In this document: positions 169 through 52,193 of the stretch, in pieces
How the letters are laid out: every line of letters begins with the position of its first letter
Numbering within the stretch: position 1 is the stretch's first letter
Origin: Pyrinomonadaceae bacterium
GTDB taxonomy: Bacteria; Acidobacteriota; Blastocatellia; Pyrinomonadales; Pyrinomonadaceae
Direction of reading: 5' to 3'
Assembly (NCBI GenBank): GCA_036403235.1
Contig: DASWRI010000044.1
Coordinates: 6,193 to 70,192, forward strand
Length of the DNA stretch: 64,000 nucleotides
Made by a program: the position numbers and the translations under genes
Notes under the pieces: generated by a model
What the model was told of the DNA's origin: nothing
What the model saw: only the letters and a program-made list of their open reading frames with translations
The model's database searches: none

Positions 169-498
169 ATGGGAAATTTTACAAAAGCAGTTACGGACAC
201 AAATTTTGAATCGGACGTTTTAAGCTCGGACAAACCGACTCTGGTCGATTTCTGGGCAGAATGGTGCGGGCCTTGCCGCGCGATTGCGCCGACGGTCGAA
301 GCGGTCGCCGAGGAATTTGACGGCAAGGCAAACGTCGTCAAGATGAACGTTGACGAAAATATGAACGTCCCGCAGCGCTATGGCATTCGCGGCATTCCGA
401 CTCTGATTTTATTCAAAAACGGTCAGGAACAGGAACGCTACGTCGGCGGCAATATCAGCCGCGAAAAACTGGCCGAATTGATTAATCAATACGTTTAA
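169..498 (+). CDS. trxA: thioredoxin
   Basis: 109 aa with WCGPC active site. AAGGAG RBS lies just upstream of the ATG. Confidence 0.95.
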   Translation: MGNFTKAVTDTNFESDVLSSDKPTLVDFWAEWCGPCRAIAPTVEAVAEEFDGKANVVKMNVDENMNVPQRYGIRGIPTLILFKNGQEQERYVGGNISREKLAELINQYV

Positions 499-583
499 TA
501 GAGGGGCGAGAGACGAGGGACAAGTGACTGGCGAAAGGAATAAAGATTCTTACACTCGTCACTTGTCCCTCGTCTCTAAATTT

Positions 584-1552
584 ATGAAAGCAATCGTTGT
601 CAGAGAATTCGGCGCGCCGGAAGTGATGAAGCTTGAAGAAGTCAAAACTCCCGAAGTCGGCGCTGCGCAAATTTTGGTGCGCGTCAAGGCGGCCGGGATA
701 AATCCGGTCGATACGTATATTCGCGGCGGAAACTATGCGCAAAGACCGCCTCTGCCATACACGCCGGGAAAAGATGCGGCGGGCGTTGTCGAAGCCGTCG
801 GCGCGGGCGTCGAAAACATAAAGGTCGGCGATAGAATTTACACCGCCGATTCAGTGACCGGAACTTACGCCGAATTCGCGCTCTGCGAAGCGAATCAGGT
901 TCACAAGCTGCCCGAAAACGTTTCGTTCGAGCAGGGCGCGGGCGTTTTCGTGCCTTACGCGACGAGCTTTCGCGCTTTGTTTCAAAAGGCGAAAGGAAAA
1001 TCGGGCGAAACAATTCTCGTTCACGGCGCGTCGGGCGGAGTCGGCATCGCTTCGGTTCAATGGGCGAAAAACGCCGGTCTGAAAGTTATCGGGACGGCCG
1101 GCTCGGAAGACGGAAAACAACTCGCTAAAGAGCAGGGCGCGGACTACGTTCTCGACCATTCGGACGAAAATTATCTCGCCGAAATCAAAGAAATCACGGG
1201 CGGAAAAGGCGTCGATATAATTTTGGAAATGCTCGCGAACGTAAATTTGCAAAAGGATTTCGAAATTCTGGCGATGTTCGGGCGCGTGACAATCATCGGC
1301 AATCGCGGAAGTCTCGAATTCAACCCGCGCGCCGTGATGGGCAGAGACGCCGTCGTTTACGGCATGGCGCTGTTTAACGCGCCGGAAGCGGAAATGCGCG
1401 AAATTCAAAACGCGATTTACGAAGGTTTGAGCAAAGGCTTTTTAAATCCGGTCGTCGGCAAAACCTTCCCGCTCAGAGAGGCCGCGGCCGCGCATCACGC
1501 CGTCATCGAAGAAAAAGCGTTCGGCAAAACCATTTTAGTAAGTGATAAGTGA
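584..1552 (+). CDS. NADPH:quinone oxidoreductase / zeta-crystallin-type medium-chain dehydrogenase
   Basis: MKAIVVREFG N-terminus and GASGGVGIASVQ nucleotide-binding motif. Start moved from 524 to in-frame ATG 584, the usual N-terminus for this family. Confidence 0.85.
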   Translation: MKAIVVREFGAPEVMKLEEVKTPEVGAAQILVRVKAAGINPVDTYIRGGNYAQRPPLPYTPGKDAAGVVEAVGAGVENIKVGDRIYTADSVTGTYAEFALCEANQVHKLPENVSFEQGAGVFVPYATSFRALFQKAKGKSGETILVHGASGGVGIASVQWAKNAGLKVIGTAGSEDGKQLAKEQGADYVLDHSDENYLAEIKEITGGKGVDIILEMLANVNLQKDFEILAMFGRVTIIGNRGSLEFNPRAVMGRDAVVYGMALFNAPEAEMREIQNAIYEGLSKGFLNPVVGKTFPLREAAAAHHAVIEEKAFGKTILVSDK

Positions 1553-1585
1553 AAAGTGATAAGTTTCCGATTTATCACTTACCAC
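1538..1585. repeat. heptamer-word inverted repeat, GTGAAAA/GTGATAA family
   Basis: gtaagtg ataagtg aaaagtg ataagt ... ttatcacttaccac. Stem aagtgataa (1554-1562) pairs with ttatcactt (1572-1580). It overlaps the qor stop codon. Confidence 0.8.
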
Positions 1586-1714
1586 TGATTTTGTTTCAAA
1601 ACCAAACACTTTCCCGCTTAACTTGAGATGGCACAGTGATTGCGGTTTATAAAATCCAAACGTGAGAATGTATCAAATACATTCTATCTAAAATAATAAA
1701 AACGAGGAGAAATT

Positions 1715-2170
1715 ATGAACGCAATCGAACTTTTAAAGGCAGACCACGATAAAGTAGACCATCTTTTCGGCAAGGTAAAGGCGACCGAAGAAGGCGAGCA
1801 CAAAGAGCTTTTCGAGCAGATAAAACAGGAGCTCGAAGTTCACACGCACATCGAAGAAACGATTTTTTATCCGAAATTAAAAGAAGAAAAAGAACTCGAA
1901 GACATCACGCTTGAAGGTATCGAAGAACATCATCAGGCCAAAATCTTTCTCCGCGAATTGTCGAATTTGACCGAGGACAGCGAAAAATTCGAGCCGAAAT
2001 TAAAAGTTCTGATGGAAGACATCACGCATCATGTTCAGGAAGAAGAAGGCAAAATGTTTCCGAAAGTCGAGGAAATCTTCGACGCGGCGACCTTAGAAGA
2101 CCTCGGCGCGCAGATGGAAGCCGAAAAGAAAAATTTCCAGAAATCAAACAAAGCGGGCGCGGGCAAATAA
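1715..2170 (+). CDS. hemerythrin-like (HHE cation-binding) domain protein
   Basis: 151 aa with His/Glu/Asp ligand pattern (ADHDKVDHLF, HTHIEE, EEHH, HHVQEEE). GGAG RBS upstream. Confidence 0.75.
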   Translation: MNAIELLKADHDKVDHLFGKVKATEEGEHKELFEQIKQELEVHTHIEETIFYPKLKEEKELEDITLEGIEEHHQAKIFLRELSNLTEDSEKFEPKLKVLMEDITHHVQEEEGKMFPKVEEIFDAATLEDLGAQMEAEKKNFQKSNKAGAGK

Positions 2171-2203
2171 GCCTCTCCGCGAGAATTTAATTTTAAGAAA
2201 AAG

Positions 2204-2231
2204 CCCGGCTCAAAAGAGTCGGGTTTTTTTA
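2204..2231 (+). terminator. rho-independent terminator after hemerythrin gene
   Basis: cccggctc-aaaa-gagtcggg stem (one G-U pair) followed by a T7 tract. Confidence 0.7.
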
Positions 2232-2334
2232 TTTGCCGGAGAGTCCGAAAACCGAATAGCTCACGCTGTTTTTATTGTAAATAGAGCGCCCGCCGGGCAG
2301 TAGCCACCCGATTTTCCGGTGATGATTTCTTAAC

Positions 2335-2410
2335 CGGTGGAAAGTGAAAAGTGGTAAGCGAAAAGTTAAAAATAAATATCCGCTTACCACTTACCGTTTA
2401 CCACTTACCG
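2335..2410. repeat. heptamer-word inverted repeat, GTGAAAA/GGTAAGT family
   Basis: cggtggaaagtgaaaagtggtaagcg, then a 20-nt AT loop, then cgcttaccacttaccgtttaccacttaccg. Confidence 0.8.
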
Positions 2411-2422
2411 TTTAAAAAACTG

Positions 2423-2451
2423 TTGACAACATACGGCGACAGGCGTAATGT
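2423..2451 (+). promoter_or_regulatory. sigma70-like promoter candidate for the CHRD gene
   Basis: TTGACA (2423-2428), 17-bp spacer, TAATGT (2446-2451), about 100 bp upstream of ATG 2555. Confidence 0.4.
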
Positions 2452-2554
2452 CTAAAGTATTGTCATTCTAAAATTTTCCGGTGTCGGTTTGGTAGATTCT
2501 TCAATTCGGTCTTTGAATCGTCAACGGGTATTTCTAAAATCAAGAGGAGAGGAA

Positions 2555-3961
2555 ATGAATAAAAGATTTAGCAGTTTAATTATTGTTGCGGTCTTCGTGT
2601 TTTTGTTTTCGGCGATGGCTAACGCCGAAACGTTTACCGCATATCTCGAAGGCCGGCAGGAAGTTCCGCCGACCGGCTCGACGGCAACCGGCTACGCGCG
2701 CGTTTTTGTCAACGAATCGACGATGCAGATTACATACAGGGTTGTTTTCAACAATCTTTCGAGCGCCCAAAACGCTTCGCACATTCACGCCCCGGCGGCT
2801 ATCGGCGCAACGGCTGCCGTCGCAATTAACTTCGGCACCGTCGGCGGCACGTCCGGCGTGATTACCGGCACGGCCTCGATTACGGCGACGCAGCTCGCGC
2901 AGCTTCGCGCTCATCAGGGCTATGTCAACGTTCACTCGGTAAATTTCCCGAACGGCGAAATTCGCGGCCAGCTCGGCCCGCGACGCCCGGTCGATTTTGA
3001 CGGCGACGGCAAAACGGATTTCAGCATTCTGAAATTCCCGAGCGTTGCGCCTCCGGGAGTTGCACAGATTAATTTCTGGAACAAAAACAGCACGAGCGGA
3101 ACCGTAATTTCGCCGCAATGGGGCGACGCTAACCGCGATTTCCCGTGCCCGGGCGATTATGACGGCGACGGTCAGGACGATTATGCGCTTTATCGCGACG
3201 GCGCGACGCAGGGCGCTCAGTCCGAATTCTGGGTGCTGACCAGCTCGGACAGCACAGTTTTGTATTACGCATGGGGACTCGGCGGCTCGACGACGGGCGC
3301 TAATCCGAGCGACACGCCGCTCTGCCGCGACTACGACGGCGACGGTAAAACGGACGTGGCCGTTGCCCGCCGCGGCTCGACGACCGGCGACCCGCTGACG
3401 TGGTACATTCGCCAAAGCTCAAACAATACGGCGCGCGTCGTTAATTGGGGCGTTACCGGAGCCGACGCCAACTCGTTCTACGATGCGCCGATTCCGGGCG
3501 ACTATGACGGCGACGGCAAATTCGACTTGGCGGTCTTCCGCTTCGGCACGCCGCCCGATAATAACTTTATCGTTTTGAAGAGCTCGGACGGCGGCTCCAT
3601 CTATCAGTTGTGGGGCAACTTTACGACCGACTACATCCTGCCGGGCGACTACGACGGCGACGGTAAATGGGACTTTGCCGTAGCGCGCACGGGCGCCGCG
3701 GCTACTTCGCCGATGGTCTGGTATGTTCTGTATGCCACCGGCGCGCAGAGACCGCAGCAGACGTTCGGTATCAGCTCCGATTTGCCGACGCAGGCCGATT
3801 ATGACGGAGACGGCAGAACGGATTTGTCCGTCTATCGTCAGGGCGCAACGACCGGCGCGGCAAGTAACTTCTGGGTGTATAACAGCTTTGACAATACATC
3901 GCAGGTTACTCAATGGGGTGTCAGACCTGATTTCCCGGTCGCAACCTTTGACGCACGATAA
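2555..3961 (+). CDS. secreted CHRD-domain protein with six C-terminal FG-GAP/VCBS-like repeats
   Basis: Signal peptide MNKRFSSLIIVAVFVFLFSAMANA. CHRD-like block (LEGRQEVPP...SHIHAPAA...YVNVHS..GEIRGQL). Six D(Y/F)DGDG(K/R/Q)xD repeats. Start set at ATG 2555 with AGGAGAGG RBS. Confidence 0.75.
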   Translation: MNKRFSSLIIVAVFVFLFSAMANAETFTAYLEGRQEVPPTGSTATGYARVFVNESTMQITYRVVFNNLSSAQNASHIHAPAAIGATAAVAINFGTVGGTSGVITGTASITATQLAQLRAHQGYVNVHSVNFPNGEIRGQLGPRRPVDFDGDGKTDFSILKFPSVAPPGVAQINFWNKNSTSGTVISPQWGDANRDFPCPGDYDGDGQDDYALYRDGATQGAQSEFWVLTSSDSTVLYYAWGLGGSTTGANPSDTPLCRDYDGDGKTDVAVARRGSTTGDPLTWYIRQSSNNTARVVNWGVTGADANSFYDAPIPGDYDGDGKFDLAVFRFGTPPDNNFIVLKSSDGGSIYQLWGNFTTDYILPGDYDGDGKWDFAVARTGAAATSPMVWYVLYATGAQRPQQTFGISSDLPTQADYDGDGRTDLSVYRQGATTGAASNFWVYNSFDNTSQVTQWGVRPDFPVATFDAR

Positions 3962-3979
3962 AAAGTGCTGAATTCTAAA

Positions 3980-4038
3980 CGGTAAGTGGTAGGTGGATAA
4001 AGTTTTTTAACTTTCCACTTACCACTTTTCACTTTTCG
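3980..4038. repeat. heptamer-word inverted repeat, GGTAAGT/GTGAAAA family
   Basis: cggtaagtggtaggtggataaag, loop, then ctttccacttaccacttttcacttttcg, directly after the CHRD gene stop. Confidence 0.8.
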
Positions 4039-4052
4039 CTATTCCCTGTAGA

Positions 4053-4928
4053 ATGACATTTATGAAACGACTTTTCATCAGTCTCGTTTTTATTTTTTCG
4101 ATAAGCGTTTTCGCTTTCGCGCAGCAGCGTCCTTTGATTACGGACGACGTCGATACGATTCCCGAAGGCTCGTTTGAGATTGCGGCGGGCGTCGATTTTA
4201 TGCAGAACGAGAAATTTCCGCTTTCGGGCTTAAAAGGCGATTTAACCCGTGTCGGCGACGTGCGCGTGAAGGTCGGTTTTTCATCAAACGTCGAATTTCA
4301 GGTGGAAGGCGTGATTCAGAATTTTCTGGCGATAAATTCGGCGACCACTCCCTCGCCGATTCCTTTGACCATCAACGGAAACTCGACCAACGATGCGGGC
4401 GATTTTACGATTTCCACCAAAATCAAGCTCAGAAACGAAACCGCTTTTTTGCCCGCGCTCGGCTTTAAGGTCGGTTTTCAAATGCCGAACACGAGCGAAG
4501 GACGCGGCATCGGGACAAATCAGATAAACGTTTTCGGCAAAATCCTGGTACAGAAAAGATTCGGCAAAAAGCCCGGAAAAGACGCGCGCGCCAACGTTTT
4601 CGGCAACGTCGGCATCGGCATTATGACCGCTCCGCTCGAACAATTTACGCAAAACGATGTGCTGCTTTACGGTCTGGCGGGAATTTTCCGCGTCAATAAA
4701 CGCATCAATGTCGTCAGCGAGGTCAACGGCCGCGCCAGCACCAGAAACGGCGCCGCGCCGCTCGGCACGGAAAGCATCGGCCAGTTTCGCATCGGAACGC
4801 AGATAAAAGCTTCCGGCCTGCGCTTCGATACGGCCGCCGTCTTCGGTTTAACCCGTTTCAGCCCGCGCTCCGGCATCACCTTCGGCGTAACTTACCAATC
4901 TCCGAATATTTTTACTCCTGCAAGATAA
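4053..4928 (+). CDS. outer-membrane beta-barrel protein (possibly MetA-pathway/transporter-like family)
   Basis: Signal peptide ending FAFAQQ and alternating hydrophobic beta-strand pattern over 291 aa. Alternative start at ATG 4062. Confidence 0.5.
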   Translation: MTFMKRLFISLVFIFSISVFAFAQQRPLITDDVDTIPEGSFEIAAGVDFMQNEKFPLSGLKGDLTRVGDVRVKVGFSSNVEFQVEGVIQNFLAINSATTPSPIPLTINGNSTNDAGDFTISTKIKLRNETAFLPALGFKVGFQMPNTSEGRGIGTNQINVFGKILVQKRFGKKPGKDARANVFGNVGIGIMTAPLEQFTQNDVLLYGLAGIFRVNKRINVVSEVNGRASTRNGAAPLGTESIGQFRIGTQIKASGLRFDTAAVFGLTRFSPRSGITFGVTYQSPNIFTPAR

Positions 4929-4932
4929 TAAT

Positions 4933-5040
4933 AAAAAATAGCCCGCGGACGAACGCCGATTTAGCCGATTTTCGCAGATTTGTTTTAAAGATTATCCTTG
5001 AAAATCCGCCGAATCCGTGTTCATCCGCGGGCTATTTTTT
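4933..5040. terminator. long-stem bidirectional hairpin between convergent genes
   Basis: aaaaaatagcccgcggacgaac (4933-4954) pairs with gttcatccgcgggctatttttt (5019-5040): 22 bp with one mismatch and a 64-nt loop, flanked by A and T tracts. Confidence 0.6.
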
Positions 5041-5844
5041 TCAAAATTTCCTGACGAGATGATTTATCGGCGAATGACCTTTCCCGATATACGGCGCGGT
5101 GCGAATCGCTTCGGTGACGAACTTTTTCGAAATCCCGACGGCCTCAATCAAATTTTTTCCGTTTGCCAGATTCGCCGCAATCGCCGCCGCCAGCGTGCAG
5201 CCCGTCCCGTGCGTCGCCGTCGTTTCGATAAACTCAGCTTCAAAAATCTGCAAATTACTGCCGACAAACAAAAAATCTTTCGCGATACGTTTTTCGCCTT
5301 TCACTTGAAAAAGGTGTCCGCCTTTTATCAAAACATTTTTTGCGCCCGCCTGCTGCATCACCTGCGCGGCTTTTTCGATGTCTTTTTCCGTTTCGATTTT
5401 TATCCGCGCGATTCTTTCGGCTTCGGGAATGTTCGGCGTGACGAGGTCGGAAAGCGGAAAAAGTTTTTCGATGAGCGCGCGCAAAGCTGCGTCGTCAATC
5501 AAATCAAAGCCGGAAGTCGAGCGCACGACCGGGTCGACGACAAAGTTTTTCAAATTATTTTCCTCGACCAGGCGTGCGACTTCTTCGATTATCTCGCGTG
5601 TCGGCAGCATTCCGGTTTTCAGCGCGTCGATTTCAAAATCTTGTAAAATCGGCTCGATTTGCCCGCGAACGATTTCTGCGGTCTGCGCGACTGCGCCGAA
5701 AACTCCGGTCGTGTTTTGAAACGTAATCGAAGTTATCGCGGAAGTCGCAAAACAGCCGAAAACCGAGAAAATTTTGATGTCGGCGATAATTCCCGCGCCG
5801 CCCGAAGGGTCGAGCCCGGCGATTGTCAAAACAACTTTTGTCAT
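5041..5844 (-). CDS. thiD: hydroxymethylpyrimidine/phosphomethylpyrimidine kinase
   Basis: VLTIAGLDPSGGAGIIADIK N-terminus and GTGCTLAAAIAANLA C-terminal motif. 267 aa. Confidence 0.9.
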   Translation of the reverse strand: MTKVVLTIAGLDPSGGAGIIADIKIFSVFGCFATSAITSITFQNTTGVFGAVAQTAEIVRGQIEPILQDFEIDALKTGMLPTREIIEEVARLVEENNLKNFVVDPVVRSTSGFDLIDDAALRALIEKLFPLSDLVTPNIPEAERIARIKIETEKDIEKAAQVMQQAGAKNVLIKGGHLFQVKGEKRIAKDFLFVGSNLQIFEAEFIETTATHGTGCTLAAAIAANLANGKNLIEAVGISKKFVTEAIRTAPYIGKGHSPINHLVRKF

Positions 5845-5853
5845 AAAAACCTT

Positions 5854-6522
5854 CTACCGTTTATTCTTTTCTAATTTTCTCAGATTCTCAGCGTCGTTCA
5901 AAAAACGAATCGCCGCAAAACCGCTTGCGCCGGCTTCCAAAACCGATTTGTAATTTGTTTCATCGATTCCGCCGAGCGCGATGACCGGAAACGGCTTTAA
6001 TTTTTCGCAAACTTCGCGCAAAGCGTTCGTGCCTTGCGGCGCGCCTTTGCCGGGAGTTGAAAAAATCGGGCTGAACGCGGCAAAATCAGCGCCGTTTTTT
6101 TTGGCAAGCTCCGCCCTTTCAAGCGAATGAGTCGAAACGCCGATGATGAAATTTTTAGGGAAATTGCGCCGAATCGTTTCGGCGGAAAGCGAATTTGCAG
6201 AAAGATGGACGCCGCCCGCTTTGGCCGCCAGAGCGATGTCGGCGCGGTCGTTGACGAGAATTTTTGTATTTGAGCGTTTGGCGATTTCGGCGGCTTCCGA
6301 AGCAAGGCGAAAAACGCTTCGCGCCGAAAGATTTTTCTCGCGGATTTGGATTAGAGAGATTTTTGTCGCGACGGCGATTTTGACGAGATTCAGAATTTGC
6401 GCGCGCGCCTGCGTGAAATTTTCCTCGGTTGCATTGCCTTCGGTAATCAGATAAAGCAGCGGCCTGCGCGCGAAAAAAACGTCATTTTTCACTGTCTTTT
6501 TTATCCGGGGCGCTGGCGGCAA
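5854..6522 (-). CDS. thiE: thiamine-phosphate synthase
   Basis: TMP-TENI fold length (222 aa). LIQIREK, VNDRADIALA and ALGGI motifs. Immediately upstream of thiD on the same strand. Confidence 0.85.
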   Translation of the reverse strand: MPPAPRIKKTVKNDVFFARRPLLYLITEGNATEENFTQARAQILNLVKIAVATKISLIQIREKNLSARSVFRLASEAAEIAKRSNTKILVNDRADIALAAKAGGVHLSANSLSAETIRRNFPKNFIIGVSTHSLERAELAKKNGADFAAFSPIFSTPGKGAPQGTNALREVCEKLKPFPVIALGGIDETNYKSVLEAGASGFAAIRFLNDAENLRKLEKNKR

Positions 6523-12464: not shown

Positions 12465-12675
12465 AATGAAATCAGAATCCGAACGTTTGATAAGAAAAAG
12501 AATATTATCGAAGAGGTGGACGGCAATCTTAGCTAAACTGCCAAATTTAAGCTAACATGTTCCGGTAATTTATGTCAACGTGTTTTAACAATATTTGTTA
12601 TTTTTAACGTAAAATTTTTGTAAATTCTCAACTTTGATTTTTGCAGCGTAATTTTTTAGTCTAATTCTTTGTCAA

Positions 12676-12744
12676 AGTCTGGAGTCTCAAGTCTGAGGTC
12701 TTGAGTCAAAGATTTTCCGACTTGAGACTTCAGACTTGAGACTC
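12676..12744. repeat. heptamer-word inverted repeat, AGTCTNA family
   Basis: agtctggagtctcaagtctgaggtcttgagtc, then an 11-nt loop, then gacttgagacttcagacttgagactc. Ends 10 nt before ATG 12755. Confidence 0.8.
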
Positions 12745-12754
12745 GATTTTATTT

Positions 12755-14028: not shown

Positions 14029-15174
14029 ATGAAATCAAACAACACAGTAGAAAAACTTTTGAGCTTTGAGCCGGCCGGCTTTCCGTTCATTTCGCTTTAT
14101 TTGAATACCGAGCCGAATGAAAACGGGCAATTTAATTTTAATGTTTTCGCCAGAAAACAGTTGAGCGAATACGCTGATAATTTCGAGGCCGAATCGAGCG
14201 AGCGCGAAAGTTTTGACCGCGACGCCGAGCGCATTCTCGAATATCTCGGAAATATAAAGCCGACGACCAAGGGCGCGGCGATTTTTGCCTGCGCGGGCGC
14301 GGGCGATTTTTTTCTGACGCGCGAATTTAACGTGCCTTTTGAGGAAGACTACTTTTTCGTTTTCGACAAGCCGTATATTTTCCCGCTGACGCGCCTGCTT
14401 GAGCAAAACCCGATGTTTGCGGTAGTTTTGGCGGACACGAATGCGGCCAATATCTACACGTTCAAGCGCGGGCACGTTATCGACCAGGAAGAAATTCAAA
14501 ACGAAAAAACAAAGCGCGTTGCCGCCGGCGGCTGGTCGCAGCAGCGTTACCAGCGCAGCGTCGAAAACTTTCACCAGCAGCACGCCAAAGATATTGTCGA
14601 AGAGCTCGAAAAAATCGTGCGCGACGAACATCTCGACCAAATCGTTCTCTCCGGCGACGAGGCCGTCATCATTCCGCTTCTGCGCGCCGAGATGTCGAAA
14701 GAACTCGACGAAAAAGTAGTCGAAGTCTTGAGTCTCAACATAAATACGCCCGAGCACGAATTGATGGAAGCCGCCGAGCAGGCGATTTTCCAGAATCAAA
14801 CGCTAATCGATAAGGAAAAAGTCGACAATCTTTTCGAGCAGAATTACGACGACGGATTCGGCGTCACGGGCGTCGAAAAAACACTCGCGGCGCTCGCTAA
14901 CGGGCAGGTGCAGGAGCTTTATATCAGCGCCGATTTCGACAAAATCGAATACGACGCGAAACAGGTTTACAAAATTTTGAGCGCCTACGCGCCCGGCGAA
15001 GACGGCGAAGTTCCCGACATCCGCCGGCAGGGAAAGGTCGTCGACGAGCTGCTTCGCCGCGCCATCGAATCGGCCGACAGCATCAGATTTATCAAGGACG
15101 AAAATCTTCTGAGCGAAGTCGGCGGCGTCGGCGCGCTTTTAAGATACAAAATTGCCAAAGGACAAAACGTATGA
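14029..15174 (+). CDS. Vms1/ANKZF1-like (VLRF1 / bacterial eRF1-like) family protein
   Basis: 381 aa. The loop AAGGWSQQRYQR resembles the GG-x-SQ-x-R-x-x-R catalytic-Gln loop of the Vms1/eRF1-like fold. C-terminal region is eRF1 domain-3-like. Confidence 0.55.
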   Translation: MKSNNTVEKLLSFEPAGFPFISLYLNTEPNENGQFNFNVFARKQLSEYADNFEAESSERESFDRDAERILEYLGNIKPTTKGAAIFACAGAGDFFLTREFNVPFEEDYFFVFDKPYIFPLTRLLEQNPMFAVVLADTNAANIYTFKRGHVIDQEEIQNEKTKRVAAGGWSQQRYQRSVENFHQQHAKDIVEELEKIVRDEHLDQIVLSGDEAVIIPLLRAEMSKELDEKVVEVLSLNINTPEHELMEAAEQAIFQNQTLIDKEKVDNLFEQNYDDGFGVTGVEKTLAALANGQVQELYISADFDKIEYDAKQVYKILSAYAPGEDGEVPDIRRQGKVVDELLRRAIESADSIRFIKDENLLSEVGGVGALLRYKIAKGQNV

Positions 15175-15320
15175 GCGAAAAGAAAAGACAGAAAAAAGAC
15201 GGCGAGGGCAAAAACAAGAATAATCAGCGAATGCGCGCCGCCAATGATAAAGACACGGGCGCGAAAAACGGCATCGATACCCGCGAGGACGATAAATCGG
15301 CGGGAAAATCGAAAAATTAG
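15171..15320 (+). CDS. 49-aa highly charged microprotein candidate, translationally coupled
   Basis: ATG 15171 overlaps the upstream TGA (ATGA). Translation MSEKKRQKKDGEGKNKNNQRMRAANDKDTGAKNGIDTREDDKSAGKSKN. Below the ORF-track cutoff. A hairpin follows immediately. Confidence 0.3.
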   Translation: MSEKKRQKKDGEGKNKNNQRMRAANDKDTGAKNGIDTREDDKSAGKSKN

Positions 15321-15380
15321 CTGAAAAGTAAAAAATGAAAACTGAAAGGTGAAAACAACTTTCAGTTTTCATTTTTCAGC
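15320..15380. repeat. heptamer-word inverted repeat, TGAAAAN family
   Basis: gctgaaaa gtaaaaa atgaaaactgaaag, loop, then ctttcagttttcatttttcagc. The 5-prime arm carries exactly one extra heptamer relative to the 3-prime arm. Confidence 0.85.
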
Positions 15381-15417
15381 TCTCACTTCCTTCCGGTTTC
15401 GGTGATAAAATATTTCT

Positions 15418-16248
15418 ATGCCCGAATTGCCGGAAGTCGAACTCGTCGCACAATCGCTCAATAAACTCGTCTCAAGCCGAAAAATAATCGCCGCCGAACT
15501 TATCAGGGAACGGCTTGCACCGGAAAATTCGCCGTTGGATTTTGCCGGAAAATTAAAAGATTCGACGATAAATTTTGTTCACCGGCGCGGAAAGCACGTT
15601 TTATTTGATTTGAATAACGCGCGTACTTTAATCACGCATCTGCGAATGAGCGGGCGGTTTATGCTTTTGCCAATCGAGCGCGATTTGCCGAAGTTTGCGC
15701 ACGCGATTTTTTATCTCGAAGACGAGACCAGACTCGTTTTTCAAGACCAGAGACATTTCGGCTTGATGAAAATCGTCGAAACGGCGCGGCTTGCCGAAGC
15801 AAAAGAAATAAAAAAGCTTGCGCCCGAGCCTTTTTCCGAAGAATTCGATTTAAAATATTTTCGCGCCGTTTTAAAAACGTCGAAGCGCAGCTTGAAGGAA
15901 TTTCTGCTCGACCAGACAAAAGTTCTCGGTCTCGGCAACATATACGCGTCCGAAGCCTTGTTTCTCGCCCGCATCAATCCGCAAATTCCGGCCGATAAAG
16001 TTCCGGCGCGCAAGGCCTCGATTTTATTTGAAAAAATCCGCGAAATTCTCGCCGAATCAATCGCGCACGGCTCGACCTTAAACGTCAATCCGGAAAACAT
16101 CGACGGTAGCTATTATGGCGGCGGTTTCGAAAGTCGCTGGCGCGTTTACGACCGCGAAAAGGAAAACTGCGTCGCCTGCGCCACGCCGATTGCGCGCCTC
16201 AAACAAGGCGGGCGCTCAAGTTATTTCTGCCCGAAATGCCAGAAATGA
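15418..16248 (+). CDS. mutM: formamidopyrimidine-DNA glycosylase
   Basis: MPELPEVE N-terminus, H2TH region, and C-terminal zinc finger CVACATP...YFCPKC. Confidence 0.92.
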   Translation: MPELPEVELVAQSLNKLVSSRKIIAAELIRERLAPENSPLDFAGKLKDSTINFVHRRGKHVLFDLNNARTLITHLRMSGRFMLLPIERDLPKFAHAIFYLEDETRLVFQDQRHFGLMKIVETARLAEAKEIKKLAPEPFSEEFDLKYFRAVLKTSKRSLKEFLLDQTKVLGLGNIYASEALFLARINPQIPADKVPARKASILFEKIREILAESIAHGSTLNVNPENIDGSYYGGGFESRWRVYDREKENCVACATPIARLKQGGRSSYFCPKCQK

Positions 16249-16304
16249 GTCTAAAGTCGCAAGTCTAAGGTCGGAAAACAATTTTGACTTTGGACTTGCG
16301 ACTC
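16247..16304. repeat. heptamer-word inverted repeat, AGTCNNA family
   Basis: gagtctaaagtcgcaagtctaaggtc, loop, then gactttggacttgcgactc. Overlaps the mutM stop codon. Confidence 0.75.
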
Positions 16305-16455
16305 TTTTGAAAAGCGGTAACAAATGCGACGCCGCGAATTTTACGCACCGGCATCTGGAAATAAACGGCAAAAAAGCGGAGTATGAATTTTCGGCAAATT
16401 AAGCTCAGGCTATACGGAAAAACCGCGACGAAAACTAATTTCAAAGCGCTTTAAC

Positions 16456-16599: not shown

Positions 16600-16600
16600 A

Positions 16601-16651
16601 GCCGTCAGCCGTCAGCGTTCAACTATCAATTTAAAACTGACTACTGACCAC
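16601..16651. repeat. heptamer-word inverted repeat, GCCGTCA/CTGACNA family (imperfect)
   Basis: gccgtca gccgtca gcg, an AT loop, then aactgactactgaccac, directly before ATG 16658. Confidence 0.55.
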
Positions 16652-18550: not shown

Positions 18551-18570
18551 AAGTTTCAGATAAGAAAAGT

Positions 18571-18641
18571 AGCCGCGAATTACACAAATTACGCAAATAA
18601 AAAATCAATTTCTATTTGCGTAATTTGTGTAATTCGCGGCT
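18571..18641. terminator. perfect 29-bp-stem hairpin between convergent genes
   Basis: agccgcgaattacacaaattacgcaaata (18571-18599) is the exact reverse complement of 18613-18641. The loop is 13 nt. Confidence 0.75.
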
Positions 18642-18700
18642 GATTTCTTTTTAGCCCGGCCGGATTATGGGCAAGTCATCGCTTTTACATCGTGTTTTCA

Positions 18701-19930: not shown

Positions 19931-19985
19931 GGAAGTGAAAAGTGAAAAGTTTAAGAATCTTTTCTAAACTTTTCACTTTTCACTC
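19931..19985. repeat. heptamer-word inverted repeat, GTGAAAA family
   Basis: gaagtgaaaagtgaaaagttt, loop aagaatcttttct, then aaacttttcacttttcactc. The loop is nearly identical to the copy at 48846-48886. Confidence 0.85.
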
Positions 19986-20315: not shown

Positions 20316-20357
20316 CTCTTTCACTTTCCACTTTTCACTTTTCGCTTTTCACTTGAG
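20316..20357. repeat. solo arm of CACTTTT heptamer words
   Basis: ctctttcactttccacttttcacttttcgcttttcacttgag. No adjacent complementary arm. Confidence 0.7.
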
Positions 20358-20974: not shown

Positions 20975-20976
20975 AT

Positions 20977-21063
20977 TGGTCAGTCGCCAGTCGTCTGTTG
21001 TAAGTTGAGATTTATTTACGTTTTCGATTAAAACTCAATCAGCAACGGACGACTGGCAAACCA
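20977..21063. repeat. long imperfect inverted repeat (GTCAGTC/GCCAGTC words)
   Basis: ttggtcagtcgccagtcgtctgttgtaagttgag, loop, then ctcaatcagcaacggacgactggcaaacca. Fills the whole dinB-to-next-gene spacer. Confidence 0.75.
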
Positions 21064-21064
21064 T

Positions 21065-21835
21065 ATGGAATTATTAAACTTCGACAAAGAATCCACCGAA
21101 GGCGGAAACTTAAGGCTTATTTCCGAAAGGCGCGAGCCGCAGCCGTTTCCCCAAATCGAAAAACAGTTCGTCAACTTCATCTTTTTTCGCGTCAATCCCG
21201 AATGGCGAAAATTGAACGCCGAAACAAAACGCATCTTTAAATCCGAGTTTCAGAGCGTTTTTAATAAGTTCAGCGAAAATCTTCTGCTTTTTTCCTATTC
21301 GCTCGTCGGCTTTGACTCAAAGGCCGATTTGATGTTCTGGCGCATCGGCGACTCGCTCGATTCGATTCAGGACATGACGGCGACGCTGTATCGCACAAAT
21401 CTGGGAAGCTTTCTCGAAACCGCCGACAACTACCTGGCGATTACGAAAAAAATGATGTTCGTCGCACCCGACGAGCACGAATCGATTGAAGACCGCTTTC
21501 ACGTCAAAGCGGGCGCGAAAAAATATCATTTCGTATACCCGTGCGCCAAACATCGCGATTGGTATGAAAAAACGGGCGAAGAGCGCAAAGAGCTGATTGA
21601 AGAAAATTTTATGGTCGGGAAAAAGTTCGACAACATAAAAATTCACCTGACGCACGCGTTCGGCTTCAGTGAGCAGGAATTTATCGTCAGCTTTGAAACC
21701 GACGAGCCGAAAGATTTTCTCGCGCTCGCCGAAGAGCTGCGCCAGACGACGGCGAGCAAATTCACTTTGCGCGGAATGCCGATTTACACGTGCCGCCAGC
21801 GCAGTTTGATGGAATGTCTCGATGCGATAGGATAA
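21065..21835 (+). CDS. chlorite dismutase-family protein (HemQ/coproheme decarboxylase-like)
   Basis: 256 aa. FVNFIFFRVNPEWRKL and YHFVYPCAKHRDWY blocks are typical of the Cld/HemQ fold. Confidence 0.7.
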   Translation: MELLNFDKESTEGGNLRLISERREPQPFPQIEKQFVNFIFFRVNPEWRKLNAETKRIFKSEFQSVFNKFSENLLLFSYSLVGFDSKADLMFWRIGDSLDSIQDMTATLYRTNLGSFLETADNYLAITKKMMFVAPDEHESIEDRFHVKAGAKKYHFVYPCAKHRDWYEKTGEERKELIEENFMVGKKFDNIKIHLTHAFGFSEQEFIVSFETDEPKDFLALAEELRQTTASKFTLRGMPIYTCRQRSLMECLDAIG

Positions 21836-21916
21836 GAATTACGAATTTCAAATTACGAATTACGAATCCAGAACTTATTTCTTTAATTCATAATTCGTAA
21901 TTTAAAATTCGTAATT
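21836..21916. repeat. heptamer-word inverted repeat, GAATTAC family
   Basis: gaattacgaatttcaaattacgaattacgaat, loop, then aattcataattcgtaatttaaaattcgtaatt. Fills the spacer up to ATG 21922. Confidence 0.85.
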
Positions 21917-21921: not shown

Positions 21922-22197
21922 ATGAAGATTGCTCGAAAATTCATCATCAGCGGAACGGTACAGGGCGTCGGGTTTCGCTTTTTCGCGCAGCGCTCGGCGG
22001 CGCGGCATCAGGTGCGCGGTTACGTGCGAAATCTCGAAGACGGGCGCGTCGAAGCACTGGCCGAAGGCGAGCCGAAAGCGGTTCAATCGTTTCTCGAAGA
22101 TTTGACGACCGGCCCGATTTACGCAAACGTCGCCGACGTCGAAGAAACGGTTTTAGAGCCGAACGGATTGTATTCAGCATTTTTAATTGAAAAATAA
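21922..22197 (+). CDS. acyP: acylphosphatase
   Basis: 91 aa with GTVQGVGFR signature and GYVRNLEDGRVE. Confidence 0.9.
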   Translation: MKIARKFIISGTVQGVGFRFFAQRSAARHQVRGYVRNLEDGRVEALAEGEPKAVQSFLEDLTTGPIYANVADVEETVLEPNGLYSAFLIEK

Positions 22198-22205
22198 ATG
22201 AGTTT

Positions 22206-22313
22206 GTCATTCGTCATTTGTCCGTGGTCAGTTGCTGGTTGAATTTAATTCGAGAGCGTAATTAAAGCTCAAGCCCGCAACTGACCACTGACCACTGACC
22301 ACTGACCACTGAC
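22206..22313. repeat. heptamer-word inverted repeat, CTGACCA family
   Basis: 5-prime arm GTCATTC GTCATTT GTCCGTG GTCAGTT GC. 3-prime arm GCAA (CTGACCA)x4 CTGAC. Ends 4 nt before ATG 22318. Confidence 0.9.
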
Positions 22314-22317
22314 AAAA

Positions 22318-22839
22318 ATGGAACACTTAAAAAAACTTATACGCGAAGTGCCTGATTTTCCGAAAGAAGGCATCAATTTTTACGATATTACGACGCTTTT
22401 GAAAGACGCCGAAGGACTCCGGCAGACGATTGACGCGCTGGCCGCGAATTACAAAGGCGAGCAGATTGACACGGTAATCGGCGTCGAATCGCGCGGTTTT
22501 ATTTTCGCCGCGCCGCTTGCGTATCACTTAAACGCCGGGTTCGTGCCCGTCCGCAAGCCGAAAAAGCTTCCGGCCGAAAAAATTTCCGTCTCGTATGATT
22601 TGGAATACGGTCAGGACACGCTCGAAGTCCACAAGGACGCCATCGGCGAAGGTCATCGCGTCTTGATTGTCGATGATTTGCTCGCGACCGGCGGAACGGC
22701 GCGCGCGACGGTCGATTTGGTCGAAAGTCTGGGCGGAAAAATCGTCGGTCTGATGTTTCTCGTCGAGCTGAATTTCTTAAACGGACGCCGAAAATTCGAC
22801 GGCTACGACGTCCGCTCGTTATTAAATTACGATTCTTAA
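22318..22839 (+). CDS. apt: adenine phosphoribosyltransferase
   Basis: 173 aa with PRPP motif [13 protein letters not shown]. Confidence 0.93.
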
Positions 22840-22884
22840 ACTAGACAATCCAAAATCCAAAACCTACAATCTAAACTCGTTTAC

Positions 22885-22958
22885 GCTCCCGTAGCTCAGC
22901 TGGATAGAGCGTTCGCCTCCTAAGTGAAAGGCCGCAGATTCGAATTCTGCCGGGAGCA
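22885..22958 (+). tRNA. tRNA-Arg (anticodon CCU)
   Basis: Acceptor gctcccg/cgggagc. D arm gctc-agctggata-gagc. Anticodon stem ttcgc/gtgaa with loop CUCCUAA. T arm gcaga-ttcgaat-tctgc. 74 nt with no encoded CCA. Confidence 0.9.
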
Positions 22959-26046: not shown

Positions 26047-26327
26047 TTCTTTATAAAATACGCGATTTATATTGAAATATCCACAAATTTTTTTTGGCCG
26101 GCCGGATTGCTTTTTATTTATTTGAAAATATTTTTCGAAATTTTTGGAAAGCAAAAGCGAATAAAACTTTCTAATAAGTAACGGAAGATAACGGTGGTCA
26201 AGCGCAATGGCAAGCAATTTGGCTTAACTTGGGGATTCCGTGTTCTGTTCACAATCTTCGTATAAAATGTCTTGAGCCGTATTTGACCGAATGCGGCTTT
26301 TTTCTTTTTAAAATTTCCAAAATTCGT

Positions 26328-26537
26328 TCGTGCAAATTGTTAAGGCGCTCGTGCAAAAGAATAAATCACGTCTGCAAAACGATAAACCGTCCGTGCAAAC
26401 GAATAACTCGCTCGTGCAAACGAATAAACCGTTCGTGCAAAAGAATAAATGCTTCGTGCAAAACTGTAAACGGCTCGTGCAAAACTGTAACTCGCTGGTG
26501 CAAAGAAATCTTTCGTTCGTGCAAAAATTTGTACGGG
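26328..26537 (+). repeat. array of 10 direct repeats with exact 21-bp period (core TCGTGCAAA)
   Basis: Core starts at 26328, 26349, 26370, 26391, 26412, 26433, 26454, 26475, 26496 and 26517. Consensus TCGTGCAAAnGAATAAAnCGn. Confidence 0.92.
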
Positions 26538-34999: not shown

Positions 35000-35110
35000 C
35001 CACAGAGGCACAGAGATTTTTTAGCCACGAATTACACGAATTACACAGATAAAAGAAATAATAATTCGTGTTATTTGTGGCTAACTTCTTTTCTGTGCTT
35101 CTTGTGCCTC
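35000..35110. repeat. nested inverted repeats (outer CACAGAG words, inner GAATTACAC words)
   Basis: Outer ccacagaggcacagag / ctgtgcttcttgtgcctc. Inner agccacgaattacacgaattacaca (35023-35047) / aattcgtgttatttgtggct (35063-35082). Confidence 0.8.
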
Positions 35111-39655: not shown

Positions 39656-40804
39656 ATGAAACTTGACGTTCTCATAATCAGAATCGGATTCGTCGCATTG
39701 CTGATGGTGCTCGGCTTTATCCTCAATCCGTTTGAAAAAACGGCTCGGCTCGGTTTTGACTCAATCGGTAACGATATTCGACCGTTTTTGTCGGCCTTGT
39801 TCGGCGGCATTATCGCGCTTTTTATTATCGCCTTTGAAATGCGTGTGCGGCGCGTTTCGCTGAAAACTCTTATCGGCGCGGCCATCGGCTCGATTTTGGG
39901 AATTTTGGGCGCGTTTTTAATCGGCGTTCTGATTTCGATTCAAAAAGAAGCGGCGGTTTCAGCCGAAATGCAGACGTTCTTGACGATTTCACTGGCGTTT
40001 TTTATGGGCTACATCGGTCTCATGGTCGGCGCGGCGAAAGGCGAATATCTTGATTTATCGGTTCTGGGCGGGATTTTTTCCGACAAAAACGTCAAGCGCG
40101 ACTGCAAAGTCCTCGACACGTCCGTCATCATCGACGGGCGCATCGCTGACGTTGCCGAAACCGGATTTTTGGGCGGAACTTTGATAATTCCGCAGTTTAT
40201 TTTGACCGAGCTGCAGCAGGTCGCCGATTCGCCCGACTCGTCAAAACGCCAGCGCGGGCGACGCGGGCTCGACATGCTCCAGCGCCTGCGCAACAATTCG
40301 AAAATCGACATCCAGATTATCGAAACCGATTTTCCGCAGGTGCGCGAAGTCGATTTGAAACTAATCGAGCTCGGCAAACAGCTCGACGCCGTTATCGTCA
40401 CCAACGATTTTAATTTGAACAAAGTTTCGCAGCTTCGCGGCGTGCAGGTTTTGAATATCAACGAGCTCGCCAACGCGCTCAAACCGGTCGTTCTGCCGGG
40501 CGAAGCGATGCGCGTTTTTGTCTTGAAAGAAGGCAAGGAATACAATCAGGGCGTCGCATATCTGGACGACGGAACAATGGTCGTCATCGACAACGCGCGG
40601 CGGCTTATCGGCAAAACCGCCGACGTCGCGGTGACGAGCGTGTTGCAGACGACCGCCGGAAAAATGATTTTCGGGCGTCTTTGGGAAGAAAAAGACGAAA
40701 ATTACGAAAACTCGCCGAACATTCACGATTCGCGTGCGACCGGTTTCAGAAAAACCGCGCGCGATATGCAGAGCGTCAGTTTTATTCCGAATAACGAAGA
40801 ATAA
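39656..40804 (+). CDS. membrane-anchored PIN/TRAM-domain protein (YacL-like)
   Basis: Four N-terminal TM helices, a PIN block VLDTSVIIDGRI...TNDFNL, and a C-terminal TRAM-like beta domain. Confidence 0.8.
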   Translation: MKLDVLIIRIGFVALLMVLGFILNPFEKTARLGFDSIGNDIRPFLSALFGGIIALFIIAFEMRVRRVSLKTLIGAAIGSILGILGAFLIGVLISIQKEAAVSAEMQTFLTISLAFFMGYIGLMVGAAKGEYLDLSVLGGIFSDKNVKRDCKVLDTSVIIDGRIADVAETGFLGGTLIIPQFILTELQQVADSPDSSKRQRGRRGLDMLQRLRNNSKIDIQIIETDFPQVREVDLKLIELGKQLDAVIVTNDFNLNKVSQLRGVQVLNINELANALKPVVLPGEAMRVFVLKEGKEYNQGVAYLDDGTMVVIDNARRLIGKTADVAVTSVLQTTAGKMIFGRLWEEKDENYENSPNIHDSRATGFRKTARDMQSVSFIPNNEE

Positions 40805-40878
40805 GTGAAAAGTGAAAAGTGACAGGTGATAGGTTTTGTTTTCACTTATCACTTTTTAATTATCACTTATCACTTTTT
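40803..40878. repeat. heptamer-word inverted repeat, GTGAAAA/GTGATAA family
   Basis: aagtgaaaagtgaaaagtgacaggtgatagg, loop, then ttcacttatcactttttaattatcacttatcacttttt. Occupies the entire yacL-ispD spacer. Confidence 0.9.
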
Positions 40879-49619: not shown

Positions 49620-49713
49620 AAGAATAATTTTAGCGCAAAGAGTGCGGGAAAAGGCAAAAGAAAAAAGGCAAAAGCCGGGAATTACGCTTTTGCCTTTTTT
49701 CTTTTTACTTAAT

Positions 49714-50943: not shown

Positions 50944-51014
50944 ATTTTTGACTTAAGAAAAATTATCGCCGAATACGAAATTAAATACAAAAAATTATAA
51001 ATGATTGTCTATTT

Positions 51015-51392
51015 TCAAAATGCTTCCAAAAATTCGACGCGGTTACCGAACGGGTCGCGAAACTCGAAGCGATTGTAATCGGGAATCGGCACGCCTTCCA
51101 AAATGCGCACGCCGCGCGCTTCGAGCTTTTCGCGCCAGCCTTCCAGATTTTCCACCTGATAAGCGACGTGCGCTTTTGTTTTCGTTCTATCAAAATTGTC
51201 TTCCGTCCCGATGTGAATCTGAAACGCGCCGACTTCGAGCCAGAATCCGCCGCGTCCTTCTAAAGACTTGGGCTTGGGAATTTCCTTTAATCCTAAAAAA
51301 TCGCAGTAAAATTCACGCGCCGCCGCTTCAGCGCCCGTCGGAATCGTTATTTGCGCGTGCTGAATTTTCAGAATTAAAAGCTTTTTTATCAT
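51015..51392 (-). CDS. VOC-family (glyoxalase/bleomycin-resistance/dioxygenase) protein
   Basis: 125 aa. HAQITIP...H(I)GTED...EFRDPFGNRVEF pattern. Confidence 0.8.
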   Translation of the reverse strand: MIKKLLILKIQHAQITIPTGAEAAAREFYCDFLGLKEIPKPKSLEGRGGFWLEVGAFQIHIGTEDNFDRTKTKAHVAYQVENLEGWREKLEARGVRILEGVPIPDYNRFEFRDPFGNRVEFLEAF

Positions 51393-52187: not shown

Positions 52188-52193
52188 ATTTAG

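Follow-up and report, generated by a model that had tools for sequence, protein, structure and literature searches.

How can the spacer between two genes keep the shape of a hairpin while the sequence that forms the hairpin is replaced? The question is raised by a 64,000-nt stretch of the genome of a Pyrinomonadaceae bacterium (GenBank assembly GCA_036403235.1, contig DASWRI010000044.1, positions 6,193 to 70,192 of the forward strand; hereafter the window), in which the spacer between the genes acyP and apt is occupied by a hairpin at 22203-22316 whose arms are built from 7-nt units. A first-pass annotation, made from the letters alone, had noticed that several spacers of the window carry hairpins of this design, and had proposed that their heptamer words are unrelated and that they are generated by a process indifferent to sequence, such as slippage plus intrastrand templating or gene conversion between the arms. 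That 7-nt repeats are over-represented between bacterial genes has been recognised from about 1990 on, in the form of short tandemly repeated repetitive (STRR) sequences, and the observation was generalised in 2007. Our preferred reading, to which we give a probability of roughly 0.55, is that the hairpin belongs to a lineage-wide class of intergenic palindromes with arms of 7-nt units, which combine STRR-type simple sequence repeats (SSRs) with a REPIN-like architecture, are made by slippage, templating between arms and dispersal, and are tolerated as stems.

Results

The acyP-apt spacer is 120 nt long and is filled by the hairpin: 5 nt separate the stop codon of acyP from the 5' arm, and the array of the 3' arm ends 4 nt before the ATG of apt. 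An inverted-repeat finder returned two arms of 39 nt each (Table 1), 77% complementary and with 36 nt between them, and Tandem Repeats Finder (TRF) reported (ACTGACC)x4.9 at 22280-22313, within the 3' arm, with period 7, 100% matches and a score of 68. The arms read as the first-pass annotation had given them for 22206-22313, namely GTCATTC GTCATTT GTCCGTG GTCAGTTGC on the 5' side and GCAA(CTGACCA)x4CTGAC on the 3' side. Folded as RNA, the whole spacer has a minimum free energy (MFE) of -45.9 kcal/mol, compared with -24.5 ± 3.4 kcal/mol for dinucleotide shuffles (z = -6.2), and 0/200 shuffles equalled it. The consecutive genes hemQ-like, acyP and apt had also been named correctly, given their matches to HemQ-like, acylphosphatase and phosphoribosyltransferase proteins. 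The window belongs to the JGI metagenome contig Ga0372942_0000064, and relatives of its HemQ assign it to the Pyrinomonadaceae (Acidobacteriota, Blastocatellia); the closest metagenome-assembled genome has a HemQ that is 89% identical. The remaining genes scanned in the window are ordinary housekeeping genes.

The period of 7 is specific. When a segment was counted as strongly periodic at a given lag if at least 18 of 21 positions matched, the window yielded 6 segments at lag 7, 5 at lag 14, 1 at lag 12 and 0 at the other lags from 2 to 15, and 20 dinucleotide shuffles yielded 0. The lag-7 autocorrelation is 0.302 in the non-coding DNA of the window, with 0.26-0.28 at neighbouring lags, and coding DNA shows the codon period (3) only. 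The relatives' set, which comprises 1.10 Mb from 80 related Pyrinomonadaceae genomes (L002-L081), contains 230 such segments at lag 7 together with 43 at lag 14, whereas no other lag from 4 to 15 exceeds 12. A control of 196 kb from 37 unrelated metagenomic loci contains a single lag-7 segment and has no preferred lag. The excess of lag-7 periodicity in intergenic over coding DNA, proposed earlier as a check, is present in the window and in the 80 relatives alike.

The vocabulary is broad and the geometry narrow. The window and its relatives hold 329 arrays, nearly all of them intergenic, which reduce to 115 canonical words; the commonest are AATTACG (27), AAAATCC (27), AAATCCG (11) and AAAAGTG (9), and TAACTGA accounts for 8. 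Among 356 strong hairpins the arms have period 7 in 149, period 9 in 15 and period 8 in 13, so that period-9 hairpins are about 10% as frequent as those of period 7. The period-7 hairpins have arms with a median of 28 nt (20-35), loops with a median of 21 nt and 90% complementarity, which matches the 20-35-nt arms of the design first described; 132 of the 149 are intergenic, 13 lie on the 5' edge of open frames and 4 deep inside open reading frames (ORFs). The first-pass observation is confirmed, and the class of hairpins that it describes extends the long-known heptamer excess in bacteria; the class occurs throughout the Pyrinomonadaceae and in some phage-like contigs.

The order hemQ-acyP-apt is kept at all of the relatives' loci, and in most of about 75 species both the hemQ-acyP and the acyP-apt spacer carry spacer-filling heptamer hairpins, with differing words. 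In the acyP-apt spacer the word is CTGACCA in the window and in L009, AATCTTA in L002, the closest relative, and AAATCCA, AATTACG, CTTACCA, CCCTCAT, GAGTCGA or TAACTGA elsewhere. About a dozen species lack this hairpin, and there the intergenic distance is 3-23 nt. The word families are incongruent with a neighbour-joining tree of the HemQ, AcyP and Apt proteins, which rules out that they track the phylogeny of these three proteins, and one subclade is wholly devoid of arrays. The presence of different words in the same orthologous spacers across species agrees with the first-pass argument that a single mobile sequence is insufficient, and also with its description of a constant period and shape under changing words.

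Pairs of genomes that are 89-93% identical allow the turnover to be followed. In these pairs the mean identity of the periodic hairpins is 0.68, compared with 0.93 for their flanks and 0.95-0.99 for classical non-periodic terminator hairpins. Between L033 and L036, GTTGTCG is replaced by GTTATCA in every unit of both arms. Between L040 and L035 a 45-nt core is kept while both arms have been rewritten with compensating changes, which indicates that the arms evolve faster than the loop; in a different spacer of the same pair the entire hairpin has been swapped for one of another family, and the stop and start codons on either side are unchanged. Two sets of metagenome contigs with 97-99% identity (L083/L118 and L104/L095) differ in the hemQ-acyP hairpin, where the loop GGTTGGCGAACTAAAC is inverted, the words are GTTTCTG and TTTCAGG and the lengths 63 and 73 nt, and have 0/103 differences in the acyP-apt spacer. 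The strain pair L083/L104 came from a search with an exact apt-start anchor, which returned 42 loci, 5 of them from relatives and none from the species of the window.

Counted over the hairpins, a deviation from the word consensus is accompanied by the complementary deviation in the other arm at 279 positions, with 22 expected if the arms were independent. The co-variation of arms that had been suggested as a check is borne out by these mirrored deviations and by the compensating arms of L040 and L035. The pattern of turnover bears the marks of units being homogenised in register within each arm, and of one arm templating, or recombining with, the other. Slippage plus intrastrand templating or gene conversion, as first suggested, fits the one-sided perfect array of the window, the mirrored variants, the compensatory arms and the inversion of the loop. 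A general tendency of the 3' arm to be the more regular of the two was considered and dropped (43 vs 39, P = 0.75).

The copy in the window has relatives of its own. In an alignment, its 5' arm and the first part of its loop match the elements that L061 and L083 have in the acyP-apt spacer, as well as an element at another spacer in L040 and L035; a search with the core matched L035 at 4841, L040 at 5031 and L061 at 9923 and 11185, the last two being copies 1.3 kb apart. All 3' arms of this family, whose 5' arms are of the GTCNTTN type, have NNGACNA units in common, which makes CTGACCA a variant within the family and no word apart. If the 3' arm of the window mirrored the 5' arm exactly, it would read GCAACTGACCACGGACAAATGACGAATGAC; the actual arm keeps GCAACTGACCAC and then continues in perfect CTGACCA units, and the inner 12 nt match. 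In the acyP-apt hairpin of L009, CTGACCA is found in both arms. The simplest reading of this alignment is that the 3' arm of the window may have arisen by a recent one-sided slippage expansion of the innermost unit, CTGACCA, which was not copied to the 5' arm. The hairpin would then be a chimera in transit, with an old GTCNTTN-type 5' arm and core and a 3' arm recently overwritten by the CTGACCA expansion.

Families of arms also spread between sites. The AATTACG arm AATTACGAATTTCAAATTACGAATTACGAAT, with its irregular second unit, recurs in the hemQ-acyP and acyP-apt spacers of many species with unrelated loops, and neighbouring spacers within a genome have the same word family in 8 cases, with 3.4 expected by chance (P = 0.012). 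Loops are common to different sites in 3 pairs among 95 loops, which indicates that the members of a family have their arms in common and not the entire element, as is the case for REPINs (PMC3116915). Six copies from the family of the window show no target-site duplication at their ends, and the flanking TTT...AAA prolong the stem instead. Mobility of whole elements, in the manner of a miniature inverted-repeat transposable element (MITE), was rejected on account of these two results. The first-pass interpretation is partly supported and needs correction, both here and in that the preference for heptamers was already known. The words are not unrelated, given that CTGACCA belongs by descent to the NNGACNA/GTCNTTN family, and the process is not indifferent to sequence, since the 5' arm and core of the window hairpin recur in elements of other loci and other species, the AATTACG arm recurs widely and the families are not independent inventions. 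Dispersal of multi-copy word families thus operates alongside slippage and templating, although the target-site duplications of MITEs were not found.

Hairpins of the same kind occur in viral contigs. The CTGACCA viral set, with a median GC content of 62%, contains 334 lag-7 segments in 547 kb and 103 period-7 hairpins. The TAACTGA contigs in IMG/VR carry mostly direct arrays, with 16 period-7 hairpins among 105, in agreement with what has been published on that repeat. Genes were called crudely, as longest stop-to-stop frames, which makes spacer-type statistics in the 62% GC viral set unreliable.

In co-directional spacers the hairpin starts at a median of 4 nt past the stop codon, and the next ATG follows at a median of 7 nt past its end, at 30 nt or less in 90/117 cases. 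Outside the two focal spacers the hairpins are distributed over tandem, convergent and divergent spacers as 46/8/9, against a background of 41/11/11; non-periodic hairpins are enriched in convergent spacers. A Shine-Dalgarno sequence precedes apt or acyP in almost none of the 70-75 species scanned, whether the hairpin is present or not, which excludes the hairpin as a replacement for it. Just ahead of the ATG the sequence is rich in A for apt and in T for acyP, and across about 75 species it is conserved regardless of the hairpin upstream. Rfam covariance models run over the whole window matched, at their gathering scores, only a tRNA-Arg at 22885-22958; a known structured RNA family was discarded as an identity for the window hairpin, which has no Rfam match. 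The heptamer hairpins are neither canonical terminators nor a known RNA, and their placement looks like that of extragenic filler.

In the window TRF found about 20 more period-7 arrays besides that at 22280-22313 (Table 1). The hairpins that had been listed as one design do form strong folds for the most part, with z from -7.5 to -9.5, but the one at 16601-16651 is marginal (z = -2.9) and that at 20977-21063 is weakly 7-periodic. The same design is seen with 9-nt units at 18566-18646 (AATTACACA/AATTACGCA) and 35021-35084 (CACGAATTA). Two arrays have a 21-nt period. About ten copies of a 21-nt unit (core TCGTGCAAA) at 26320-26526 fill the divergent spacer from a 1064-aa DUF5122/FG-GAP gene to a YjeF_N/carbohydrate-kinase gene, and to judge from the spacing (21 nt = 3 x 7 = two helical turns) this looks like an array of protein-binding sites; the second, at 51435-51624 (TTTTCAAC..CAGAAAATC), lies within a crude, possibly spurious ORF at 51005-51772. 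A long non-periodic GC-rich hairpin at 4933-5040 lies in a convergent spacer, with an A-run and a T-run at its sides; it resembles a bidirectional terminator of the classical kind, in contrast to the heptamer hairpins. Elsewhere, a gene with bacterial eRF1-like domains (baeRF_family10/acVLRF1) at 14029-15174 is followed by a 49-aa ORF, and a promoter-like site at 22842-22870 precedes the tRNA-Arg (CCT) gene, which comes directly after apt.

Table 1. Genes, parts of the acyP-apt hairpin and other periodic elements of the window
Feature	Position	Strand	Remarks
5' arm	22203-22241	+	Degenerate heptamers GTCATTC GTCATTT GTCCGTG GTCAGTT(GC); G-rich side; aligns unit by unit with GTCCTTN arms of L061, L083 and L040
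Loop/core with inner stem (GGTTGAATTTAATTCGAGAG...)	22242-22277	+	MFE structure; 5' part homologous to cores of related elements elsewhere
3' arm	22278-22316	+	Holds the perfect (CTGACCA)x4.9 array, 22280-22313
Chlorite-dismutase/HemQ-like gene	21065-21835		Upstream of acyP
acyP, acylphosphatase, upstream gene	21922-22197	+	PF00708, E = 1.9e-25
apt-like phosphoribosyltransferase, downstream gene	22318-22839	+	PF00156; Shine-Dalgarno not found upstream
AATTACG-family hairpin	21837-21916	+	Fills hemQ-acyP spacer; arm AATTACGAATTTCAAATTACGAATTACGAAT, 31 nt, 94% complementary; z = -9.5 (folded 21836-21916)
dinB-hemQ spacer hairpin	20986-21057	+	Weakly heptamer-periodic (spacer lag-7 match 0.46); z = -7.9 (folded 20975-21064)
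AGTCTNA-family hairpin, 14-nt higher-order unit	12675-12744	+	Divergent spacer, 11 nt upstream of gene starting at 12755; z = -7.5 (folded 12670-12750)
AGTCNNA-family hairpin, then T-run (terminator-like)	16255-16303	+	After fpg-like gene; z = -7.9 (folded 16245-16310)
GCCGTCA vs CTGACNA, weak pairing, marginal hairpin	16600-16651	+	-11.3 kcal/mol, z = -2.9
Perfect 20-bp-arm hairpin, xxxGACx units	509-577	+	Between thioredoxin and alcohol-dehydrogenase genes
AAGTGAN-family hairpin	1536-1588	+	
GTGAAAA/CTTACCA hairpin, 14-nt higher-order units	2337-2414	+	
GGTAAGT/CACTTNN hairpin	3981-4044	+	Ends just before gene starting at 4053
TGAAAAN hairpin	15319-15385	+	
Perfect AGTGAAA hairpin	19934-19984	+	20-nt arms, 100% complementary
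Lone (TTTCACT)x5 array, without clear inverted partner	20318-20356	+	
AAGTGAA/TCACTTA hairpin	40800-40875	+	Between PIN-TRAM gene and ispD
AAAAGGC-family hairpin	49651-49710	.	Between two minus-strand genes
(AAGTGNA)x5 array, partial inverted partner	52193-52252	.	Convergent spacer

Discussion

The observations can be accommodated in a sequence of events. Replication slippage in the 7-nt register would expand and homogenise the units within one arm, as the one-sided perfect array and the concerted word changes suggest. Template switching or recombination between the arms, of which the outcome is seen in the genome pairs, would then copy changes across the stem and could flip the loop; template-switch mutation has been reported both to create and to repair stems (PMC8794818). 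Families would in addition be copied to further spacers by a route that leaves no target-site duplication, and such copies are seen for the family of the window. The elements would grow until they are stopped by the stop codon on one side and, on the other, by the short stretch that the next start codon requires. They may persist because a spacer folded as one tight stem would leave read-through transcription and the expression of the next gene undisturbed. The hairpin at 22203-22316 is not a conserved RNA gene, and a dedicated cellular function is not required.

Several observations speak against this explanation. The length differences between relatives are mostly not multiples of 7, a clean 7-nt gap being found once (L033 vs L036), and a degenerate anchor at the acyP C-terminus recovered no strain-level variants of the window locus from metagenome contigs. 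Both focal spacers are occupied in most of the species. The words are unequally frequent: stretches in IMG/VR number 68 for (CTGACCA)3, 107 for (TAACTGA)3 and 32 for (AAAATCC)3, against 7 for the one-base variant (CTGACGA)3, and this enrichment, together with the recurrence of exact arms, is unlike the prediction of a pure sequence-blind slippage. The exact 21-mer AATTACGAATTTCAAATTACG, with an irregular unit, is present in viral or proviral contigs of 35-40% GC (L125 1106-1126 and L126 4275-4295), which suggests horizontal spread or strong convergence of word families; a search of a plasmid collection for L126 gave no match. In L129 (IMGVR_UViG_3300047586_000106; 61% GC, with a tail tape-measure gene), 8 consecutive spacers of the structural module at 343-6450 are filled by TGGCCAG/CTGACCA hairpins, a state that would make better sense if the stems had some role. 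Mismatches read on the sense strand are G.U in 118 cases and A.C in 83 (P of about 0.01-0.02 by normal approximation, the hairpins being non-independent), an excess that is absent in the viral set (89 vs 108).

The polarity of the hairpins raises a further difficulty. In the Pyrinomonadaceae the 5' arm is the G-rich arm in 84 hairpins vs 45 (a second tally gives 91:48), or 54 vs 19 when counted by word family, and in the viral sets the ratios are 87:9, 21:1 and 10:5. Given that a palindrome of the form X-loop-rc(X) reads alike on both strands, this polarity is a property of the hairpin itself and does not describe how it is oriented to the genes, and slippage and template switching leave it unaccounted for. 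A speculative rationale is that, with the G-rich arm first, the C-rich arm could pair once transcribed on either strand and would never be exposed in nascent RNA. Along with the polarity, the triplets ATG, GTG and TTG are depleted in the 3' arm (207 vs 122, 221 vs 7 and 46 vs 2). The idea of a 3' arm with stop codons in all frames was considered and given up, the asymmetry being inconsistent (62 vs 52, P = 0.4).

These points bear on the proposal that the hairpins are functional intercistronic RNA stem-loops in which structure is selected over sequence, either to hide the ribosome-free spacer (e.g. from Rho or nucleases) or as an RNase III-type site of processing or stability. In a variant of it, the stem would bring the upstream stop codon close to the downstream start codon, so that upstream translation unmasks the start region. 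The order of the arms would keep the C-rich one unexposed in the nascent RNA. We regard such a role as possible but doubtful. It would agree with the spacer-filling geometry, from 4 nt past the stop codon to 7 nt before the ATG, with the high occupancy of the two focal spacers in spite of sequence turnover, with the lack of a Shine-Dalgarno sequence before apt and acyP, with a polarity that is general in the Pyrinomonadaceae and viral sets, and with the 8 filled spacers of a phage module that must be co-transcribed; the G.U excess on the sense strand points the same way, although it is modest, comes from non-independent data and does not extend to the viral set. However, the arms evolve faster than the loop or core, which is the opposite of what is expected of a selected RNA stem, and many copies are partly decayed, that of the window retaining 77% complementarity. 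The hairpins also follow the background distribution of spacer types, convergent and divergent ones included, and species without the hairpin merely have short spacers. A broader proposal, unlikely as a whole, is that heptamer-armed hairpins are a distinct and unrecognised intergenic class of Acidobacteriota, GC-rich tailed phages and low-GC genomes, with a small vocabulary (CTGACCA, TAACTGA, AATTACG, AAAATCC), the G-first rule, a copying mechanism and an RNA-level function that would account for this rule and for the spacer-filling shape, e.g. the folding of ribosome-free intercistronic RNA so as to shield the C-rich arm from Rho or nucleases where initiation lacks a Shine-Dalgarno sequence. 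As intrinsic (Rho-independent) transcription terminators the hairpins are very hard to explain: the stems are strong, T-runs follow some copies (e.g. 16255-16303) and several hemQ-acyP copies end in TTTT, yet the hairpin of the window is directly followed by AAAAATG, with a T-run on neither strand, and a T-rich tail is found in only 16/117 co-directional copies. A terminator-pattern scan, moreover, gave sites no more numerous than in shuffles, the enrichment in convergent spacers belongs to non-periodic hairpins and not to heptamer ones, and hairpins stand between phage structural genes.

Two other explanations start from the arms as targets of proteins. If the elements were strict REPINs, every word family would consist of non-autonomous elements that depend for their movement on a REP-associated tyrosine transposase (RAYT) specific to that family, with the hairpin in single-stranded DNA as its substrate. 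Two inverted conserved arms with a less conserved spacer (PMC3116915), several families per genome, an extragenic placement that is random as to spacer type, the sharing of families by adjacent spacers above chance and the absence of target-site duplications, as expected for HUH/Y1 transposases, would all be in keeping with this. A search with the RayT of E. coli against all loci, the window being searched within its 64 kb, found one true RAYT, in the relative L070 (19815-20420; NF047646, 91.7 bits; PF01797). On either side of this gene stands a 45-nt repeat, GC-rich and non-periodic (TCGGCAAGATGCCGA...CCAGCCGGGAGGCTGG), and not a heptamer hairpin; this is a classical REP/RAYT system, distinct from the heptamer hairpins. 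Furthermore, the arms are direct heptamer arrays and not short palindromes, and have neither GTAG nor CGTC as a head, many transposases would be required for over 100 words, no transposase was seen among the scanned genes of the window, and a concerted change of arms unit by unit is not predicted by REPIN models, so that we consider the strict version quite improbable. It has also been proposed, for TAACTGA repeats upstream of start codons, that such arrays are bound by a protein which recognises a specific RNA or DNA sequence, here in a 7-nt register, with S1, Csp and CsrA among the candidates discussed (PMC4679880). The array that ends 4 nt before the ATG of apt, the occurrence of TAACTGA itself in the acyP-apt spacer of L020, L073 and L066, and the frequency of some words far above that of their one-base variants would suit such a protein. 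Nevertheless, 115 words in one bacterial family and differing words at an orthologous site are incompatible with one specific binder, and the units of a hairpin are base-paired and not single-stranded; the chance that this explanation applies is very small.

The material is of use beyond this locus. About 80 species hold the same two spacers in varied states, which include word replacement, concerted change, one-sided expansion, loop inversion and loss, and from which the rates and the order of events can be reconstructed. Heptamer repeats can take the form of REPIN-like palindromes with a strict polarity, and the same design is found between the structural genes of phages. If the stems are functional, they would provide bacteria without Shine-Dalgarno sequences with a general means of operon expression that does not depend on sequence. 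If they are not, they would offer a clean natural case in which template switching and slippage keep a structure without selection, and a caution for the inference of RNA structure from covariation.

Comparison with known systems

Among the long SSRs of many bacterial genomes, heptanucleotide repeats have been described as the most abundant class, and 7 nt has been proposed as a polymerase-interacting length that favours slippage (Mrazek 2007, as cited in PMC4679880 and PMC4692102). The STRR of heterocystous cyanobacteria and the heptameric long SSRs resemble the hairpins described here in their tandem 7-nt units, intergenic location, several word families per genome, lineage-specific abundance and proposed origin by slippage; three heptamers have been described in Calothrix, as cited in PMC4692102. 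The array at 22280-22313 is of this kind, with 4.9 tandem 7-nt copies, an intergenic position and a period that is over-represented throughout the lineage. Unlike STRR, the elements of the Pyrinomonadaceae, which belong to another phylum (Acidobacteriota), have as their dominant form an inverted pair that fills the spacer, use more than 100 words and have the G-rich arm first. No report of heptamer repeats in Acidobacteriota was found in the literature searched.

Direct repeats of TAACTGA just upstream of start codons have been found in Beggiatoaceae, some Cyanobacteria and some Bacteroidetes (MacGregor 2015, PMC4679880). They share with the elements studied here a position a few nt upstream of start codons without Shine-Dalgarno sequences and a patchy distribution across phyla, and the word itself occurs in relatives of the window, as noted above. 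The published sets differ in that 169 of 170 are direct and 1 is indirect, with one dominant word, whereas the Pyrinomonadaceae have inverted pairs and many words; the array before apt is start-proximal as in that family but, unlike its members, forms one arm of a hairpin. The repeats of GGGAATC in Xanthomonas and GGGGA(C/T)T in Nostoc (Rehm 2015, PMC4692102) are likewise intergenic and variable, are flanked by the same genes in related species and in some cases form stem-loops; those of Xanthomonas show extensive variation and are sometimes inverted. These repeats are G-rich, have been studied as quadruplex formers and belong to one word family per genus, and inversion is the exception in them and the rule in the Pyrinomonadaceae.

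Multi-base compensatory changes, arms that are perfect reverse complements and inversion between arms are also the marks of template-switch mutations in hairpins (Monttinen and Loytynoja 2022, PMC8794818). These were described as a general mechanism in RNA genes, and no connection has been made with heptamer-periodic arrays or with a class of elements that extends over a genome. REPINs (Bertels and Rainey 2011, PMC3116915) are similar in having inverted arms with a variable spacer, a hairpin of about 70-110 nt, an extragenic location, multiple copies, several families and no target-site duplication; the hairpins of the Pyrinomonadaceae differ from them in arms that are heptamer arrays with concerted changes of units, and the only RAYT of a relative is flanked by another type of repeat. 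Taken together, the preference for heptamers and the slippage hypothesis have already been published (PMC4692102, PMC4679880), and what is added here is that heptamer repeats are arranged as REPIN-like, spacer-filling palindromes with a fixed polarity.

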